Source: an uncultured delta proteobacterium (lineage in GTDB: Bacteria; Desulfobacterota; Binatia; Binatales; Binataceae). Taken from it: a DNA stretch of 64,000 nt. Numbering within the stretch: position 1 is the first letter of the stretch; every line of letters begins with the position of its first letter. Position numbers and translations under genes: made by a program. The stretch lies in the NCBI GenBank assembly GCA_963774665.1, contig CAVZGB010000020.1:226797-290796 (forward strand), in the 5' to 3' direction. Shown here in pieces: positions 6,652 through 52,008 of this stretch. The notes below the pieces were generated by a model. That model saw only the letters and a program-made list of their open reading frames with translations, was not told the origin of the DNA and made no database searches.

Positions 6652-6827
6652 GTTGAATTCCGACTCACACTCCCATCAACATCAGCTGATTTGCAAGTGG
6701 CTGCCGGCCGCGGCACAACATGGCGCGATAACGACGCGGTCGCAGATAGACGTGAGTACTTGCGCGATCGGCATGAATCGCGAGTTGAGAGTTCCGGCGC
6801 CTTCACTGCGACGCCAGGTCTCGATAT

Positions 6828-7265
6828 CTACAGGAAGCTGCCGACTGTTCCCTGACCGTCGAGCTCGATGTGCTGGGGACTATTTTGCGCCGAGTCGGTG
6901 AACGTCAGGGCATTGTGATCGTTCACCTTGCCGGTGACGAGCGGATGGAACACGACCTCAACCTTGCACGAACCACCGGGAGCCAGCGGCGAGCCCGAGC
7001 ATTTGTCGCTTTGTATCGAGAAGGTTTCCGCGGCGACGATACTGGTAAAAGTGATCGAGTCTGTCCTGGATTTGTTGGTAACGGTTACGGTCAGCGGCGC
7101 ACTGGAGGCTGTGGCGACCACCGGGCCGAAGTCGTGCTTGTCAGGTTTGAGTTTCAGCTCTGCGCCTGAGTCTGCGGCGACGATGGCGTAGACTAAAGCC
7201 GTCGCGACAGCTGTCAAGACCATCAGAAACGATCCGGCAGGACGGGTAAATCTGAATCGCAGCAT
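6828..7265 (-). CDS. Small secreted protein with a choice-of-anchor-D/ASH-like domain
   Basis: Signal peptide, then DFGPV...TVTNKS...CSGSPLAPGGSCKVEVVFHP, which is the same pattern as the C-terminus of the 58000..59639 protein. Confidence 0.5.
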   Translation of the reverse strand: MLRFRFTRPAGSFLMVLTAVATALVYAIVAADSGAELKLKPDKHDFGPVVATASSAPLTVTVTNKSRTDSITFTSIVAAETFSIQSDKCSGSPLAPGGSCKVEVVFHPLVTGKVNDHNALTFTDSAQNSPQHIELDGQGTVGSFL

Positions 7266-45307: not shown

Positions 45308-46528
45308 ATGAGCATGAAAATGGGAAGTCACCGCTCCAACGAAAAGTATCCAACAGCCGACTTGGCCGCGTCGAACAGTCTTCTGGTTGCCCCGCTGCTA
45401 CCCCTGATCGCAGAGCAGGCGGCCGAGGCCGACGCCACGCGGTCCGTCGCCCCGTCGGTTATCGCGGCGCTGAAGAGCAACGATGTTATGCGCATGTCAG
45501 CCGTCCGAGCCTTGGGCGGGCTTGAAAGTAGCGTAACCGCGATGGGGCGAGAGCTGGAAGCAGTGGCCGCCGCCTGCGGCTCAACCGGGTGGTGTCTTTG
45601 GAACCACCTGTGTGTGTTCCACTTCTACTGCGGCCTTCTGGGTCCCGCGCATATTGGATTGCTGCGCAATATCACTGCCAACCGGCACTGGGTGTGCTTG
45701 CCCGCCGGCGCTGGGACCGGAGTGATTGGCAGAGTGGACGGGGACGAGGTCGTGCTGAACGGAGTCGCCTCCTTTGGCTCCGGCGGCCGCTATTCGGACT
45801 ATGCGGGTGTCACCTTCGTCTTCGAGGGCGAAAAGCAGCCGCACTTGACGTTAGTTCGTACCGATCAGCAGGGGGTGCGCATCGACCCAACCTGGAAGGC
45901 AATGAGCCTTCGCGCCTCCGCGACTGACCACATGCATTATGAGGACGTGCGAGCGCCCCTTTCGGGGATAGTGCCGTTCCCGTTGCCTTACCGGGTTGCC
46001 TTCCGCGATCCGGCCTATGCGGTCATCGACGATCGCTATCGCGAAGATTGGGTGGCTCTCTCCGACCTTTGGCTCGGCTGTATGGCGGTGGGCGTCGCCG
46101 ACGCGGCATTGAAGGACGCGTGCATCGGCATCCAGGGCAGAGTCGCTATCATGGGAGTCAAGATGGTGGAGAGACCCACCATCCACGTGAATCTCGGCCA
46201 TGCCGTCGCGCTGATCCACGCGGCGCGCGCAGCAGTCTATGACTCCTGCGCCGCGACGGACGCGCGTATTGCGGCGCATCAGACTCCGACGGAAGGCGAC
46301 TATTTGAAACAGCTTGGGGCCAGCATGATAGCTCTGCGCTTGTGCGACGAGGCCATGCGGCTGATCCTGCGCGTGCTCGGCGGCAATGGTCTCCGAGAGG
46401 GCCAGTCCTTCGAACGCCGCTACCGTGATTTTCAAGCGATGCCTTTGCACATCAACGCACATCCGGACCGGGTGTCGGAACAACTTGGACGTCACGCGCT
46501 TGGCCTGGCGACCGAGAACCCGTTCTGA
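45308..46528 (+). CDS. Acyl-CoA dehydrogenase-fold flavin monooxygenase
   Basis: ACAD-like three-domain pattern; 406 aa. Confidence 0.7.
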   Translation: MSMKMGSHRSNEKYPTADLAASNSLLVAPLLPLIAEQAAEADATRSVAPSVIAALKSNDVMRMSAVRALGGLESSVTAMGRELEAVAAACGSTGWCLWNHLCVFHFYCGLLGPAHIGLLRNITANRHWVCLPAGAGTGVIGRVDGDEVVLNGVASFGSGGRYSDYAGVTFVFEGEKQPHLTLVRTDQQGVRIDPTWKAMSLRASATDHMHYEDVRAPLSGIVPFPLPYRVAFRDPAYAVIDDRYREDWVALSDLWLGCMAVGVADAALKDACIGIQGRVAIMGVKMVERPTIHVNLGHAVALIHAARAAVYDSCAATDARIAAHQTPTEGDYLKQLGASMIALRLCDEAMRLILRVLGGNGLREGQSFERRYRDFQAMPLHINAHPDRVSEQLGRHALGLATENPF

Positions 46529-46880
46529 ACCTCAGGTTACCTCCGCAAATGAGGCAGTGGGTTTTACTTGAGCCTCGGATTGTTCTGGTCCTGTGAGTAC
46601 AGAAGCCGGTGTGCGAGCCTTTAGTGCGCGCCTGGATTCTTACTTGAACGTCTCCATCGGACGTACGACTTGAATTAAAAGCGATCAGAATGTATAGCGG
46701 GTTTTGATTTCAGAATCTCGTAAAACCCTGAATTGGAGGTTGATGTCCGCGGCTCGTTGAAAGAGGTTTGCTCTTAATCTCGAGCGCCTGCTGGTCGCGC
46801 TTGAGCCGACTGAGTTAGCAAGAGCGAACCATTCTCAAATTTATCCACTTTTTTTCTCATCGGCTAAGGAGGACTCAACG

Positions 46881-47678
46881 ATGGCTGACTCACTGACAAA
46901 GCATAAGATCCAAAGGTATGGCTGGATACCCGACCTCCCGGACGCGCGCGATCATCTCTACGCAGCGCCGCCGCATGTCCTTACCGCACTGCCGACGAAA
47001 GTCGACTTGCGACCCCAATGCCCCAACGAAGTGTACGACCAGGGAAAACTTGGCAGTTGCACGGGCAATTCGATCGCCGGCGCCGTCCACTTCGACCGAA
47101 TCAAGCAGCAGGATCCGTCTGCACAGGAGCTTATTCCGTCCCGCCTGTTTATCTACTACGACGAGCGGTTCATCGAGGGCACGATCTCGCAAGATAACGG
47201 AGCACAGATTCGGGACGGGATTAAAGCCGTAGCAACTCAAGGGGTCTGTTTCGAGAGCGGACCGGACTCGTGGCCGTATGATATCGCGGCGTTCGCTACA
47301 CAACCGCCTCCGAACTGTTACGAAGCGGCGTTGAAAAACAAGGTGCTGCAGTACAGCCGGTTGGTTCAAGTCCTGTCTCAGCTGAAGGGCTGCCTTGCGG
47401 ACGGATACCCGTTCGTTTTTGGATTCACCGTCTACGAAAGCTTTGAGGGCCCGGAGGTGGCAAAAACTGGCGTCGTCCCGCTGCCGGGACCTGGAGACGC
47501 GGCGATCGGCGGACACGCGGTGCTGGCCGTAGGTTATGACGACGAGGCGGAACGTTTCATCGTACGCAACTCATGGGGACCGGGGTGGGGGATGAACGGT
47601 TATTTCACACTTCCCTACTCATACGTCACCAACTCAAATCTCGCGGATGACCTCTGGACGATCCGCATGGTCGCGTAG
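46881..47678 (+). CDS. Papain-family (C1A) cysteine peptidase without signal peptide or pro-domain
   Basis: Catalytic Gln/Cys (QGKLGSCTGNS), His (GGHAVLAVGYD) and Asn/Trp (RNSWGPGWG). AAGGAGG ribosome-binding site. 265 aa. Confidence 0.85.
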   Translation: MADSLTKHKIQRYGWIPDLPDARDHLYAAPPHVLTALPTKVDLRPQCPNEVYDQGKLGSCTGNSIAGAVHFDRIKQQDPSAQELIPSRLFIYYDERFIEGTISQDNGAQIRDGIKAVATQGVCFESGPDSWPYDIAAFATQPPPNCYEAALKNKVLQYSRLVQVLSQLKGCLADGYPFVFGFTVYESFEGPEVAKTGVVPLPGPGDAAIGGHAVLAVGYDDEAERFIVRNSWGPGWGMNGYFTLPYSYVTNSNLADDLWTIRMVA

Positions 47679-47725
47679 AGGTGCTACACATCGGGAGCTA
47701 GCGGAAGCGGATCATTCCCGCTCCT

Positions 47726-48040
47726 CTAGCTCCCTACTTTCACATGGATCTTGAAAGTTCTACTCGCCGCTGCCGAGCTTTCCCATCGCCGACGATATCC
47801 GAGTTCGATATCGCATTCGCCGGGGCGGACCGCCTTGAAGTTCCAGGTGTGATCACCGCCCTTTCCTGGCGGGCCGGCTGGCGCGATGAATTGGTCGCCA
47901 GTCATAGCGCATGCGGGGCCGCCGTCGGAGGTTAGCTGCCAGCTGAACCCGGTCGTCCGGTTCTCCGGAAGACGAACCTCGATCGTCTGACCGACCGTCA
48001 CATCGATCGTTCGACCGTTAAACGTTTCGTCGACCAGCAC
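47726..48040 (-). CDS. Chagasin-family (I42) cysteine-peptidase inhibitor
   Basis: 104 aa with the chagasin motifs NRTTGFSW (NPTTG-F/Y-xW), GxGGxxxF (PPGKGGDHTWNF) and RRWE (RPWE). No signal peptide. GTG start. Confidence 0.8.
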   Translation of the reverse strand: MLVDETFNGRTIDVTVGQTIEVRLPENRTTGFSWQLTSDGGPACAMTGDQFIAPAGPPGKGGDHTWNFKAVRPGECDIELGYRRRWESSAAASRTFKIHVKVGS

Positions 48041-48055
48041 TCCGTAACCCTGACC

Positions 48056-48310
48056 TTACTGGCTCCGTCGGATGGCGTCGCGGCGACAGGTGCGGTTCTT
48101 CTTCGAGCATGCGTACGGCTCGACTATTCCGTTGTCGGGCCCAATGCAGGTTTGAGTGTAAACGCACCAATACTGGTGGTCGCTAACGGACTGAACCGTC
48201 GGATCATGCTCTGCTGGAGTGAATTGGCCCTTCCACGTGAGTGCCGGGCAGATGTCGGGACTGTTCCGGTCAAACCGGACGGCGTGAGCCAGCATCGGAC
48301 GCGCTTTCAC
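48056..48310 (-). CDS. Small Cys-rich hypothetical protein
   Basis: 84 aa with 5 Cys. Its start overlaps the coxM-like stop (ATGA), and its stop lies 16 nt before the chagasin gene. Confidence 0.35.
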   Translation of the reverse strand: MKARPMLAHAVRFDRNSPDICPALTWKGQFTPAEHDPTVQSVSDHQYWCVYTQTCIGPDNGIVEPYACSKKNRTCRRDAIRRSQ

Positions 48311-49329
48311 GATCGGGCTCCTCTGCGATGTATGGAAGGGATATTCGCGCCGGCGGCCTGCAGGATAGCTCGCTTCAGAGCAACTCGCGCGACCTGGACC
48401 TTGTATCCGTTCTGTCCCAGATTCCGCGCTGGCTGTAAGGCCGCATTGCTGGCATCAGTCGCAACTTGATCATCGATCGCTTTTCCGATGAGTGCTGCTT
48501 CCGCTTCCTTAGACCTCCATGGCACGGGAGCGACATGTCCCAACACCACGGAAGCGGTAGTGACGTTGTCGCCCTTCTTTTGGATTGAAACTGTGGCCGT
48601 TGCGACCGGCCAGTCGAATCCGTGCTTTTGTCGAACTTCGTAGTACGCGGTAGAGGATCCCGCCGCGGGCGGTGGCAACTTCAGACGAATCACCATCTCA
48701 TTAGGGGCAAGGTCGTGCTCACGCTCTCCCGGTTTCAACGGGACTCTGTAAAAATCTTCCAGCGAAATCGAGCGGGAGCCCTTGGGACCCGCAATATCGA
48801 TGCTCGCGCCTAACGCCACCAGTACCGGAGCTATGGTCGAGGGACTCACGAAATAGGCCGGACCCGTGTTGCCCAGAATCGCGTGATACCGGTTGTCGCC
48901 CTTCAGCACCAAAGACTCCCCGTTCGCATCCAGCGCCAGCAATCCATAACCATTGCGGAAGTACCAACAACGGGGACGCTGGCAGAGGTTTCCGCCTATA
49001 GTCGCCATGTTCCGGATCTGAGGGCTGGCCGCGTCGTTGAGGGCCATCGCGAGCGCTGGGTACAGCTGGGCTACTCGTTTTTCGCGGGCCAATTCATCCA
49101 AGGTGACAAGGCAGCCCGCCTGCAATCCCTGGTTCGCATCGACGGCCAGGCTATCGAGGTCGCCGACTTTCTTTATGTTCACCAGTTGCGAGGGCGCGAC
49201 AATGTCGTCCTTCAGTAAGGCCAGCAGATCAGTTCCGCCGGCCAGTATCTCAGTCGGTCCCCATTGCTTGCCCAATAGATCCAATGCCGACGGCAAATCG
49301 GTGGGGCTGCTATAAGTGAACGGATTCAT
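48307..49329 (-). CDS. Molybdenum hydroxylase FAD-binding medium subunit (CoxM/CutM family)
   Basis: ILAGGTDLL FAD motif in a 340-aa protein. Confidence 0.85.
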   Translation of the reverse strand: MNPFTYSSPTDLPSALDLLGKQWGPTEILAGGTDLLALLKDDIVAPSQLVNIKKVGDLDSLAVDANQGLQAGCLVTLDELAREKRVAQLYPALAMALNDAASPQIRNMATIGGNLCQRPRCWYFRNGYGLLALDANGESLVLKGDNRYHAILGNTGPAYFVSPSTIAPVLVALGASIDIAGPKGSRSISLEDFYRVPLKPGEREHDLAPNEMVIRLKLPPPAAGSSTAYYEVRQKHGFDWPVATATVSIQKKGDNVTTASVVLGHVAPVPWRSKEAEAALIGKAIDDQVATDASNAALQPARNLGQNGYKVQVARVALKRAILQAAGANIPSIHRRGARS

Positions 49330-51443
49330 GGCTGCCCCCCTAACGCTCCCAAAACGCGGTCGGGCGTCAGCGGCAGGTGAGGAACGCGCACACCGATTGC
49401 ATTGGCCACTGCGTTAGAAATGGCCGCTCCCGGTGAGATGACAGCGGCCTCACCACATCCCACAATTCCGCGCTCGTCATATCCCTTGCCCGACATCAGA
49501 TGAACGACAAGGTCGCCGATGTCGCCGATCCCACAAAGCCGATAGAACTCGATATTCGAATTCAGCATGCACCCGAGATTCTGATCCATGATCTTCTCTT
49601 CGTAGAGGGCGTAGCCGATTCCCATGGTCAGCGAGCCATAGCATTGGCTCAGCGTTGTTTTGCGGTCGATAATCAGTCCGCAATCCTGCACGGCAACGAT
49701 TTTGTCGATACTCACTACCCCCGTCTCGACATCCACTGAGACCTCGGCCATTTGCACGCCGCCGACACCGCTGGAATTCAAATCGCCAGGACCCGGGTTG
49801 GCTCCGTGAGTTGTCATGGGCAAGGCCCCGAGCGTCGAGCAGGCCTGTTTCCAAGTGATCTTGGTGTTACCGGCGGCGATCATGCCCCCCGCGGCGCTGA
49901 GGGTATTCGCCTGGACTCCGAGAGATGGAGCGACTTTCGCGAACAAAGCGTTGAGGGCGTCGACTGCAGCGCGTCTGGCGGCCGATCCCATGCCGCCCGC
50001 GGTCCCGCTTCCGCCCGAGCCGGCGGAAGCCGGAAACGCACTGTTCCCCACTTGAATCTGAATATCTCCTGGCTGCAGGCCGAACGTCTCGGCCACTACG
50101 ATCGCGATGACGGTACGCGTACCCGTCCCGATGTCCTGCGTCCCGGAAGAGATCACGACGGATCCATCTGGATTGATTGTGAGCGCACACGACGCTGGGT
50201 GTGCGGTACCGGTCCAGGTATGAAATGATAGACCGACTCCCGGCAGAATCCCCTTCCCGCCGTTCTTATTTCTTGGCCGCCACTTGGCTTTCCAGTCCAT
50301 GAGTTGAGCGGCGGTGTCGAATTCTTCTTTGTAAACTTGCGCTCGCGGACCAGCCAACTTCAGATTCTTTAGGACAAGATCGAGCGGATCCTGCCCCAAC
50401 TTGTCCGCCAAATCGTCCAGGGCGCACATTGTGAGAAAGCATGCCTGTGGATGGCGCGGCGCGCGCATCGAGCGCGCACTGCCGATGTTGTTCACGATCG
50501 TGGTGTGCTGATTCCTTTGATTGGGGATTTTCAGGATGTAGGGCAGGGGAAACTCGGCGCCGCCAGTCATTCCACCGGTGCTCCACGTGGTCGCCTGCCA
50601 GGCGGTCAAATTGCCGTGCTTGTCAGAGCCGATCTTAATCGTCCCGTAAGCGGAGGGCCGACAGCCCGCGGTCTGCTGCTCGGTGTGGCGATCTATCACC
50701 AAGCGCACGGGCGCTCCCCCGGCTTGCTTGGACAATTGCGCCGCCGCCAGTCCCCATCGGTCCGCGGCCAGCTTTGCTCCGAAGCCGCCGCCTTCGTATT
50801 CGGCGTGTACTTGAATCTTGCTGGCCGGCAGATTCAGGGCTTTGCTCAGTTGAGTCACAATTCCCGACACCGATTGCGTCGAGATGTGGACGTCGAGCGA
50901 GGAATCGGTCCACGTCGCCACGCTGCCGTGCGGCTCGAGGCAACAATGAGTGATGACAGGCATCGAGTAGGTTTGCTCGATCACGGCGGCAGCCTGTTGA
51001 AAAGCGGAATCGACATCTCCAACGTTTTCCGGCTGCATCGGCTGCGAGAAACCCGCGGGCGGATTCGGGTTCGAGTCCGTCACCAGATGCGGCAACTCCT
51101 GGTAGCTGACCTTGACCGCCTTGGCAGCCTGCGCGGCGGACAGTTCGTCCAGGGCCGCCACCGCAACTACGTCGTCGCCTGCCCAGAAGATCTCGGTTCC
51201 CGGCTTCTGGATCACGTACACCGCCTTGCATCCCGGGGTTTTTGCAGCCGCCTTGGTGTCGATGCTTACGATTTTCGCATGAGCGTGGGGGCATCGCACC
51301 GTAGTCGCGTACAACATGCCGGGCAAGTTGACGTCGGTCGTGTACTGGGCCTTCCCCGACACTTTGAATGGCGAATCGACTCGGAGAACGTCGGTACCTA
51401 TTAACTTCCGATCGGCGGATGCGGGCCAGTCGTAGTCAACCAT
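49326..51443 (-). CDS. Molybdopterin-binding large subunit of a xanthine-dehydrogenase-family enzyme (CoxL/aldehyde oxidase-like)
   Basis: 705 aa with the aldehyde oxidase/xanthine dehydrogenase Mo-cofactor domain pattern. Confidence 0.9.
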   Translation of the reverse strand: MVDYDWPASADRKLIGTDVLRVDSPFKVSGKAQYTTDVNLPGMLYATTVRCPHAHAKIVSIDTKAAAKTPGCKAVYVIQKPGTEIFWAGDDVVAVAALDELSAAQAAKAVKVSYQELPHLVTDSNPNPPAGFSQPMQPENVGDVDSAFQQAAAVIEQTYSMPVITHCCLEPHGSVATWTDSSLDVHISTQSVSGIVTQLSKALNLPASKIQVHAEYEGGGFGAKLAADRWGLAAAQLSKQAGGAPVRLVIDRHTEQQTAGCRPSAYGTIKIGSDKHGNLTAWQATTWSTGGMTGGAEFPLPYILKIPNQRNQHTTIVNNIGSARSMRAPRHPQACFLTMCALDDLADKLGQDPLDLVLKNLKLAGPRAQVYKEEFDTAAQLMDWKAKWRPRNKNGGKGILPGVGLSFHTWTGTAHPASCALTINPDGSVVISSGTQDIGTGTRTVIAIVVAETFGLQPGDIQIQVGNSAFPASAGSGGSGTAGGMGSAARRAAVDALNALFAKVAPSLGVQANTLSAAGGMIAAGNTKITWKQACSTLGALPMTTHGANPGPGDLNSSGVGGVQMAEVSVDVETGVVSIDKIVAVQDCGLIIDRKTTLSQCYGSLTMGIGYALYEEKIMDQNLGCMLNSNIEFYRLCGIGDIGDLVVHLMSGKGYDERGIVGCGEAAVISPGAAISNAVANAIGVRVPHLPLTPDRVLGALGGQP

Positions 51444-52008
51444 GCGACCTCCTGCGTTTCGACTGGACTTTCGTCCGGCTCACAGCCAGCAGTGCTTCCG
51501 CGATGCCGGCATAGGTTCCGCAGCGGCAAAGATTTCCACACATACCTTTTTTAATTTCGTCCAGAGTCGGCGCCGAATTGTCGTCCAGAAACGCCTTCGC
51601 AGACATGACAAACCCGGAAGTGCAATAGCCGCATTGCGAGGCGTCCGCCTGCACGAATGCCTGCTGCAATGGATCGAGTTCGCCATTTTCTGCGAGCGAT
51701 TCTATCGTCGAAATTTCCAGATCCTGCGAATCGATCGCGAGCATCGAGCAGGCATACACGCGCCTTCCGCCCGCGATTACCGTACATGCGCCGCATGTCG
51801 CACGATCGCAGACCTGCTTTGCTCCGGTCAGTCCCAGTTTTTCCCGCAATACCTGGAGCAAGGTGAGGCATGGCTCCGCGGTCGCGGACATGGTCTGCCC
51901 GTTGATCTTCAATTGGATCGGAACGGGCCCGGGACCGAACGCCGGCGGGGCCGCCTTTCTCAGGCGCGCTTTTTTTCTTCCAATCGTCCTATGTTTTCGG
52001 ATTGCCAT
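51436..52008 (-). CDS. (2Fe-2S)-binding small subunit (CoxS family)
   Basis: CxxGxCGxC plant-type cluster and the second CxxC...CRCG cluster. Confidence 0.85.
   Translation of the reverse strand: MAIRKHRTIGRKKARLRKAAPPAFGPGPVPIQLKINGQTMSATAEPCLTLLQVLREKLGLTGAKQVCDRATCGACTVIAGGRRVYACSMLAIDSQDLEISTIESLAENGELDPLQQAFVQADASQCGYCTSGFVMSAKAFLDDNSAPTLDEIKKGMCGNLCRCGTYAGIAEALLAVSRTKVQSKRRRSHG

Follow-up and report, generated by a model that had tools for sequence, protein, structure and literature searches.

The window analysed here is a stretch of 64,000 nucleotides from a soil bacterium, an uncultured delta proteobacterium (GTDB lineage Desulfobacterota; Binatia; Binatales; Binataceae; GenBank assembly GCA_963774665.1, contig CAVZGB010000020.1, positions 226,797 to 290,796). 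Between its positions 46881 and 48040 lie two genes that face each other tail to tail. One encodes a xylellain-like cysteine peptidase and the other a chagasin-family inhibitor of cysteine peptidases, and neither protein has an export signal. It is fairly probable that the two form an endogenous, self-regulating protease/inhibitor pair of the cytosol, in which a tight-binding inhibitor gates the cysteine protease. Because the pairing recurs in eight phyla, it is probably a pair of this kind rather than a toxin-antitoxin module. The parts of the two genes are as follows.

46866-46872, plus strand: Shine-Dalgarno sequence AAGGAGG, 8 nucleotides 5' of the peptidase ATG, read from the sequence; invariant in the related loci L081, L083 and L084.
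46881-47678, plus strand: xylellain-like C1A cysteine peptidase (XLP), 265 residues, with matches to PF00112 and 3OIS and no signal peptide.
46881-46988, plus strand: N-terminal extension of the peptidase, residues 1-36, a candidate short pro-segment, preceding the position that aligns with the mature N-terminus of papain.
47040-47060, plus strand: oxyanion Gln54 (47040-47042) and catalytic Cys60 (47058-47060), motif QGKLGSC, invariant in alignment A1.
47514-47570, plus strand: catalytic His212 (47514-47516) and Asn230 (47568-47570), invariant in A1 and aligned to the His/Asn region of cathepsin H.
47726-48040, minus strand: signal-less chagasin-family (I42) inhibitor, 104 residues, GTG start, with PF09394, PDB and Foldseek matches.
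47939-47962, minus strand: loop L2 motif NRTTGFSW of the inhibitor, residues 27-34, with T29, T30, G31 and W34 invariant; corresponds to NPTTG of chagasin.
47855-47866, minus strand: loop L4 motif GKGG, residues 59-62, with G59 and G62 invariant.
47780-47791, minus strand: loop L6 motif RRWE, residues 84-87, with R84 and W86 invariant and E87 at least 90% conserved; corresponds to RPW of chagasin.

The peptidase matches the Pfam profile PF00112 (Peptidase_C1) at E 2e-13 and 51.4 bits (cut-off 20.7), over profile positions 1-205 of 220, and the Pfam search gave no match to the I29 prodomain (PF08246) or to the C1B profile PF03051. Against xylellain (PDB 3OIS) the match is at E 5e-75, with query residues 5-264 collinear with 3OIS residues 25-289. 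The AlphaFold2 model has a predicted local distance difference test score (pLDDT) of 82 and a predicted template modelling score (pTM) of 0.83, and it shows the two-lobe fold of papain. A Foldseek search with this model finds 3OIS with a template modelling (TM) score of 0.82 and 48% identity, and cathepsins B, K and S at E about 1e-11. An initial annotation of this locus, made from the sequence, had described the catalytic residues as complete. This is correct: Gln54, Cys60, His212 and Asn230 are invariant in the 37 peptidase homologues of alignment A1, and match the catalytic positions of cathepsins and papain.

The start of the gene is the first ATG possible downstream of an in-frame stop, and the N-terminus that follows, MADSLTKHKIQRYGW, is hydrophilic. 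Inspection of the protein sequence revealed no signal, no Tat motif and no sorting domain at the C-terminus. In the comparison with papain, none of the six disulfide cysteines is conserved in the peptidase, which keeps the catalytic Cys alone; Leu57 sits where papain has the disulfide Cys22. Judged by its sequence, the protein lacks all three marks of a classical secreted C1A zymogen, namely the signal peptide, the I29 prodomain and the three disulfides; the missing disulfides are in keeping with a location in the cytoplasm. The family is large, with more than 8000 clusters at E<1e-10 and members in more than 560 genomes, generally about 255-270 residues long. Its members are 60-80% identical across phyla (mean 67%) and about 65% identical across domains of life. 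The ratio of non-synonymous to synonymous substitution rates (dN/dS) against close relatives is 0.15-0.32, as under purifying selection.

One internal segment of the peptidase model, and only one, has a pLDDT below 50. This is the loop FIEGTISQDNG (residues 97-107, 47169-47201), whose flanks are highly conserved (ER.IEG...D.GA.IRDG), and which may be mobile or depend on a ligand. A nucleotide, uridine diphosphate (UDP), is reported to bind to xylellain outside the active site.

The inhibitor is equally well identified. It matches PF09394 (Inhibitor_I42) at E 1.8e-25 and 89.5 bits (cut-off 27.2), over profile positions 2-91 of 91, and its best match in the PDB is chain B of 2WGN, the inhibitor of cysteine peptidases (ICP) of P. 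aeruginosa (E 3.9e-13), with chagasin at E 3e-9; an NCBIfam search gave no significant model. The AlphaFold2 model (pLDDT 89) is all-beta with seven strands, forming an immunoglobulin-like β-sandwich, and in Foldseek it superimposes on EhICP2 and chagasin with TM scores of 0.85-0.88 and root-mean-square deviations of 1.8-2.5 Å. The three motifs NRTTGFSW, GKGG and RRWE are intact, as had been noted before, and the invariance of their key residues was read from an alignment of 34 chagasin homologues (A3). The Pro-to-Arg changes that it shows in L2 and L6 are variants that occur in relatives too. The dN/dS values against close relatives are 0.06-0.26, again indicating purifying selection.

An in-frame TAA lies six codons 5' of the GTG start, leaving no space for a signal peptide. 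Relatives carry Met at this position, and gene callers give a length of 104 residues in most members of the cluster; the calls of 126 residues found in some databases (P0125, P0129) were rejected as over-extended starts. Neither gene has an upstream start that could supply a signal peptide or a pro-region. Such a start would have counted against the initial annotation, whose statement that both proteins lack a signal peptide stands. The exact peptidase and chagasin of the window are present in public collections, where members of their clusters are annotated as 'C1A family cysteine protease' and 'inhibitor of cysteine peptidase'.

A survey of the co-occurrence of prodomain-less C1 peptidases with I42 inhibitors, which the initial annotation had suggested, was carried out on the best 80 genome loci of peptidase homologues (from the more than 560 genomes), with I42 sought within 6 kb. 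In 26 of the 80 an I42 open reading frame (ORF) directly adjoins the peptidase, the gaps being mostly 10-90 bp. The linked loci belong to eight phyla (Myxococcota, Pseudomonadota, Chloroflexota, Desulfobacterota, Methylomirabilota, Acidobacteriota, Verrucomicrobiota and Thermoproteota), the archaeal carriers being Nitrososphaeria and Bathyarchaeia. The order of the genes is not the same in all of them: 22 are convergent, three have the inhibitor co-directional and downstream, and one has it upstream. The co-directional orders (C1 to I42 and I42 to C1) are seen in archaea, Methylomirabilota and Acidoferrum. When all neighbouring ORFs were clustered, I42 was the sole neighbour of the peptidase that recurs across phyla, and no third conserved gene of the module was found. 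The adjacency is far above chance, and because it is kept through three gene orders it points to functional coupling of the peptidase with I42.

The same association is seen from the side of the inhibitor. A metagenome scan for chagasins, which used single-sequence and over-specific patterns, yielded 22 loci, and was supplemented by a profile search and by look-ups. All four close relatives of the window's chagasin in metagenomes are paired with the peptidase. All seven signal-less chagasins that were looked up (88-115 residues) adjoin a peptidase 60-65% identical to that of the window, compared with none of five lipoprotein or signal-bearing chagasins. In the chagasins sampled, 11 of 12 signal-less proteins are encoded beside a xylellain-like peptidase, against 0 of 22 that bear a signal or lipobox. 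Counted by locus, 27 of 30 linked chagasins have no hydrophobic leader, and a signal or lipobox is present in 17 of the 18 that are unlinked. The split by export signal has a Fisher p of about 4e-8. The distances between peptidases and between their inhibitors are correlated, with a Mantel r of 0.58 that none of 2000 permutations reached and that is mostly driven by close pairs. With a mean identity of 36% against 67%, the inhibitor is diverging much more rapidly than its enzyme. The functional link between peptidase and chagasin is well supported, and the proposal that the two genes make up a protease/anti-protease module is borne out to this extent; the suggestion that the module is toxin-immunity-like is a different matter, and is taken up below.

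Some features of individual loci are recorded here. Two peptidase and chagasin modules occur in the same genome in two cases: L009 and L072 lie about 110 kb apart on contig CAVZCJ010000007.1, and L013 and L015 belong to one metagenome-assembled genome. The chagasin of L015 is split over two frames (6818-7141 and 6810-7001), as a frameshifted copy of the inhibitor or through an assembly error. In L095 a signal-bearing chagasin (2-436) is followed by a co-directional, distant C1 peptidase (363-1616; E 3e-8 to the window enzyme), and these two may make up a distinct protease/inhibitor pair that is exported. About 20 unpaired loci of Verrucomicrobiota (L020-L080) have a gene for a HU/IHF-like DNA-binding protein directly 3' of the peptidase, which looks like lineage-specific synteny and not like a functional partner.

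The initial annotation had noted that the peptidase has no inhibitory pro-peptide, and an I29 prodomain is indeed absent, but its conclusion that the enzyme would be constitutively active is not justified, because the protein has a conserved N-terminal extension, part of which in xylellain reportedly blocks the active site. The mature N-terminus of papain aligns at residue 38 of the peptidase, and residues 1-36 are for this reason taken as an extension outside the mature domain. Within them is the motif G14-W-x-P-D-L-P-D-x-R-D24, of which G14, W15, P17, D18, L19, P20, D21, R23 and D24 are invariant in alignment A1. Residues 13-36 are conserved to the same degree as the catalytic domain (top-residue frequency 0.76 against 0.78), and the extension is collinear with the N-terminus of xylellain, including the motif YGWIPDLPDARD. 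In the 3OIS structure 267-268 residues are ordered. The title of the paper describing that structure ends with the words '...reveals an intriguing activation mechanism' (Leite et al. 2013).

A working model for the pair can be proposed. The peptidase, which lacks a signal peptide and the three canonical disulfides of papain, would stay in the reducing cytoplasm. A first layer of latency would come from the conserved N-terminal extension of 36 residues, which would occupy the active-site cleft as is reported for xylellain. A second would come from the chagasin, whose L2 (NRTTG), L4 (GKGG) and L6 (RRW) loops would enter the cleft of the activated enzyme. Chagasin binds cathepsins and falcipain by inserting its loops into the cleft, and the inhibitor described here would likewise be a tight, reversible and competitive inhibitor of its peptidase. 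Each gene would be served by a promoter of its own and would end at the hairpin shared by both, and therefore the ratio of enzyme to inhibitor could be set by transcription. Proteolysis would be released only under particular conditions. What the analysis establishes is the identity, fold and motifs of both proteins, their lack of export signals, the purifying selection on the genes and the conserved linkage; we infer the physical binding of the two proteins, the occlusion by the N-terminus and the differential regulation of the genes.

Several observations weigh against this model. Of the 80 close peptidase homologues, 54 have no I42 within 6 kb, and the enzyme can therefore be carried by cells with no linked inhibitor. 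Many of the unlinked chagasin loci are short contigs. The Spearman correlation of the peptidase and inhibitor distance matrices is weak (0.18). AlphaFold2 gives residues 1-19 of the peptidase a pLDDT below 50, so that the model does not place them confidently, and the occlusion of the active site by the N-terminus is a candidate mechanism, drawn by analogy from what is reported for xylellain. Finally, an N-terminus that fills the cleft would exclude simultaneous binding of chagasin, and any order of events in which the one gives way to the other is conjecture.

By analogy with systems already described, the pair is most likely a prokaryotic, genetically linked counterpart of chagasin and cruzipain, with a logic like that of staphopain and staphostatin. 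The nearest known enzyme is xylellain itself (Xylella fastidiosa XF0156, PDB 3OIS; MEROPS C1A, 'short bacterial C1A'), which resembles the window peptidase in its length (about 265-271 residues), in the extension motif YGW/YIPD..D.RD and in having no signal peptide or I29 prodomain. It differs in having been discussed as a possible virulence factor or secreted enzyme of a plant pathogen (PMC12090721), and no description of a linked inhibitor for it was found in the literature consulted. The protozoan inhibitors of the chagasin/ICP family (T. cruzi chagasin, which acts on cruzipain, and the ICPs of Leishmania, Entamoeba (EhICP) and Plasmodium) share with the window inhibitor the PF09394 fold, the three-loop motifs and the absence of a signal, and they control a papain-family enzyme of the same organism (PMC5014320). 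Their targets, however, are secretory or lysosomal proteins with I29 prodomains, and are not encoded beside the inhibitor gene, whereas the partners in the window are predicted to be cytosolic and are genetically linked.

The characterised bacterial members of the inhibitor family are P. aeruginosa ICP (PA0778, 2WGN), P. syringae Cip1 and P. putida Cpi1. Unlike the window chagasin, they have signal peptides or lipoboxes and act on proteases of a plant or animal host (PMC5014320; bioRxiv 10.64898/2026.06.02.729523). The same sources note that protozoan chagasins regulate endogenous C1 peptidases, that the genomes with characterised bacterial chagasins mostly have no C1 peptidases, and that most Pseudomonas have no C1A enzyme (PMC5014320; bioRxiv 10.64898/2026.06.02.729523).

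Two further systems are similar in organisation and different in kind. In staphopain-staphostatin (ScpA/ScpB, SspB/SspC) and in the C10 protease Bfp of Bacteroides with its inhibitor Bfi, a cysteine protease is likewise linked to a dedicated cytoplasmic inhibitor, and the logic is that the cytoplasm is shielded from the cell's own protease. There, though, the proteases belong to families C47 and C10, the inhibitor has the lipocalin-like I57 fold, the two genes are transcribed together, and the secreted protease has a prodomain. Aminopeptidase C/bleomycin hydrolase, of family C1B, is like the window peptidase a cytoplasmic, prodomain-less enzyme, and its active site is gated by its own terminus; it differs in being hexameric and self-compartmentalising, and in using the C-terminus. 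No protein inhibitor is known to partner it.

The initial annotation had instead suggested a toxin-immunity-like function. In such a toxin-antitoxin module, serving addiction or abortive infection, the free protease would be lethal, held in check by a labile chagasin, and would be unleashed when the locus is lost or a phage attacks. The tight two-gene linkage, moving as a unit between distant phyla, speaks for such a module, as do the much faster evolution of the inhibitor, the patchy distribution prone to horizontal transfer (PMC10380794), the frequency of xylellain-like genes on viral contigs (380 IMG/VR contigs) and the two copies of the module on one contig in L009 and L072. We nevertheless consider this explanation unlikely. 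The genes are convergent, both in the window and in 22 of the 26 linked loci, and are not an autoregulated operon. Their neighbours are metabolic (monooxygenases, an acyl-CoA dehydrogenase and a xanthine-dehydrogenase-type operon), and no mobile-element or defence genes were found near the pair in the window. The GC content at third codon positions (GC3) of both genes is native, like that of their neighbours, and no PADLOC model matches either protein. The 54 of 80 homologues with no I42 within 6 kb also weaken this explanation, and the peptidase, under strong purifying selection and so similar across phyla and domains of life, is unlike a polymorphic toxin. The conserved N-terminal segment, for its part, argues for built-in latency.

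The inhibitor might alternatively be a safeguard of the staphostatin type: the peptidase would be exported by a non-classical route, and a cytosolic chagasin would protect the producer beforehand. The xylellain-like peptidases of phytopathogens have been called 'hypothetically secreted', on the basis of SecretomeP predictions (PMC12090721), and there is precedent for a linked cytoplasmic inhibitor with an exported cysteine protease in staphopain/staphostatin and in C10 Bfp/Bfi (PMC3462683). Against this, the peptidase carries neither a signal or Tat motif nor a C-terminal sorting domain, and has lost all the canonical disulfide cysteines of exported papain-like enzymes. There are no secretion-system genes near the pair, and none recur across loci. 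The pair is moreover found in free-living soil bacteria and in archaea of the Nitrososphaeria and Bathyarchaeia. The safeguard is accordingly an improbable explanation here.

A low probability attaches also to a conflict module built around a mobile protease, in which chagasin would confer immunity to the cell's own and to phage xylellain-like peptidases, or would be the labile brake of an abortive-infection switch that frees the protease when the cell is infected. Cells with the enzyme often have, in addition, a cytosolic chagasin that evolves fast. This interpretation stays alive because viral contigs carry xylellain-like peptidases without a nearby I42. In IMG/VR, 380 viral contigs, several of them 200-435 kb long, encode such peptidases, 50-63% identical to that of the window. 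No I42 was found within 4 kb in any of the best 80 viral loci drawn from these 380 contigs (L115-L194), and no alternative linked inhibitor was found in the viral loci. The viral peptidases have an amidase-type endolysin gene as neighbour in six loci, and anti-repressor or terminase genes in others. Homologues also occur in jumbo phages in GenBank, namely the uncultured phage LR756511 (52% identity) and Burkholderia phage FLC9 (39%).

That the chagasin is merely the last gene of a xanthine-dehydrogenase-type operon (2Fe-2S, MoCo, FAD, ORF84, chagasin), beside the peptidase by chance or synteny, is very improbable and effectively refuted: the five genes share the minus strand, their junctions being short or overlapping, and keep their order in the closest relatives (L081-L084), but beyond these the dehydrogenase genes are not beside the pair (L013 has a weak match to the FAD subunit about 4 kb away), and the adjacency of peptidase and I42 persists across eight phyla and three gene orders.

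The other features around the self-regulating pair that we favour are the following (MoCo, molybdenum cofactor; FAD, flavin adenine dinucleotide).

46660-46701, plus strand: promoter-like block, TTGAAT (46670-46675), a 17-nucleotide spacer and TATAGC (46693-46698), about 180 nucleotides 5' of the peptidase ATG.
47693-47734, no strand assigned: GC-rich hairpin in the gap between the two convergent genes, extending over the stop codon of the chagasin; minimum free energy -33.3 kcal/mol, z -4.4.
48056-48310, minus strand: ORF84, a small gene between the FAD subunit and the chagasin, with its own protein family and under purifying selection.
48307-49329, minus strand: FAD subunit of the xanthine-dehydrogenase-type operon, upstream of the chagasin.
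49326-51443, minus strand: MoCo subunit of the same operon, upstream of the chagasin.
51436-52008, minus strand: 2Fe-2S subunit of the same operon, upstream of the chagasin.

The two ORFs converge across 47 bp, and not 48 bp as previously given. None of 200 shuffled sequences folds as well as the hairpin between them. It has no T-run and was not reported by the terminator scan; it is probably a bidirectional terminator. Of 25 convergent intergenic regions in related loci, 12 have a comparable hairpin. Because about half of such pairs possess one, as is usual for terminators, the idea that this one has a special status was rejected.

Upstream of the peptidase, the block at 46660-46701 hardly varies when the window is aligned with L081, L083 and L084, while its flanks diverge. 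A scan with the sigma-70 consensus did not report it as a promoter. From its sequence it may be one, which would imply a leader of about 180 nucleotides. Within this putative leader (46780-46806) is a partly conserved inverted repeat, CTCGAGCGC...GCGCTTGAG, seen on comparing four closely related sequences. An Rfam scan of 46300-48500 at E<=1 gave no match. The region 46529-46880 had been singled out as AT-rich and contrasting with its surroundings. Its GC content is 0.489, against 0.585 for the window, and other intergenic stretches of the window lie at 0.46-0.54; because these are similar, the composition is that of an ordinary promoter or leader region.

Further 5' of the peptidase are genes for an acyl-CoA dehydrogenase and for luciferase-like monooxygenases. 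Synteny with the closest relatives L081 and L084 breaks at about 46596, some 285 bp 5' of the peptidase ATG. To the left of this point the acyl-CoA dehydrogenase and monooxygenase genes are not shared with these two loci, and to the right the peptidase, the chagasin and the dehydrogenase operon are.

Relatives whose DNA is 85-90% identical have ORF84 proteins that are 89-98% identical, and the dN/dS of the gene is 0.03-0.11. The protein has five cysteines, its family comprises 77 representative clusters of proteins of about 70-85 residues, and no match to it was found in Pfam or NCBIfam. ORF84 is probably a fourth gene of the dehydrogenase operon, because its GTG overlaps the stop codon of the FAD subunit (GTGA). 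ORF84 and the chagasin are in frame with a single TAA between them, and a fusion, a pseudogene and readthrough were each considered and rejected: the spacer is 15-95 bp long in relatives, and ORF84 has its own selection and its own small family. The in-frame arrangement is a coincidence, given that the spacer varies in this way.

Both protein families were already known and annotated, and they stand in the relationship that would be expected. The literature searched, the coverage of which is incomplete, yielded no description of the linkage of xylellain-like peptidases with chagasins or of the split between signal-less and exported chagasins, and no characterisation of such a protease/inhibitor pair was found in it. 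Gene-neighbourhood databases may already show the linkage. In the part of a review that cites Rigden et al. 2002, bacterial chagasins are said to have been proposed as inhibitors of the bacterium's own proteases or of those of the host (PMC2784779). Their role towards the cell's own enzymes has been described as not elucidated (PMC5014320), and intracellular peptidase inhibitors have been described as rare (PMC3901451).

Together with its relatives, the locus marks out a clean unit of two genes in eight phyla of bacteria and archaea. It also yields a simple rule, by which a chagasin that lacks a signal is linked to a xylellain-like peptidase and an exported chagasin is not. The peptidase of the pair is a candidate for the natural, endogenous target of prokaryotic chagasins. 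The pair is small, should express readily, and can be tested directly in vitro. It would provide a handle on the function and regulation of the xylellain-like peptidases, a family that has been implicated in vascular plant pathogens and is carried by phages.

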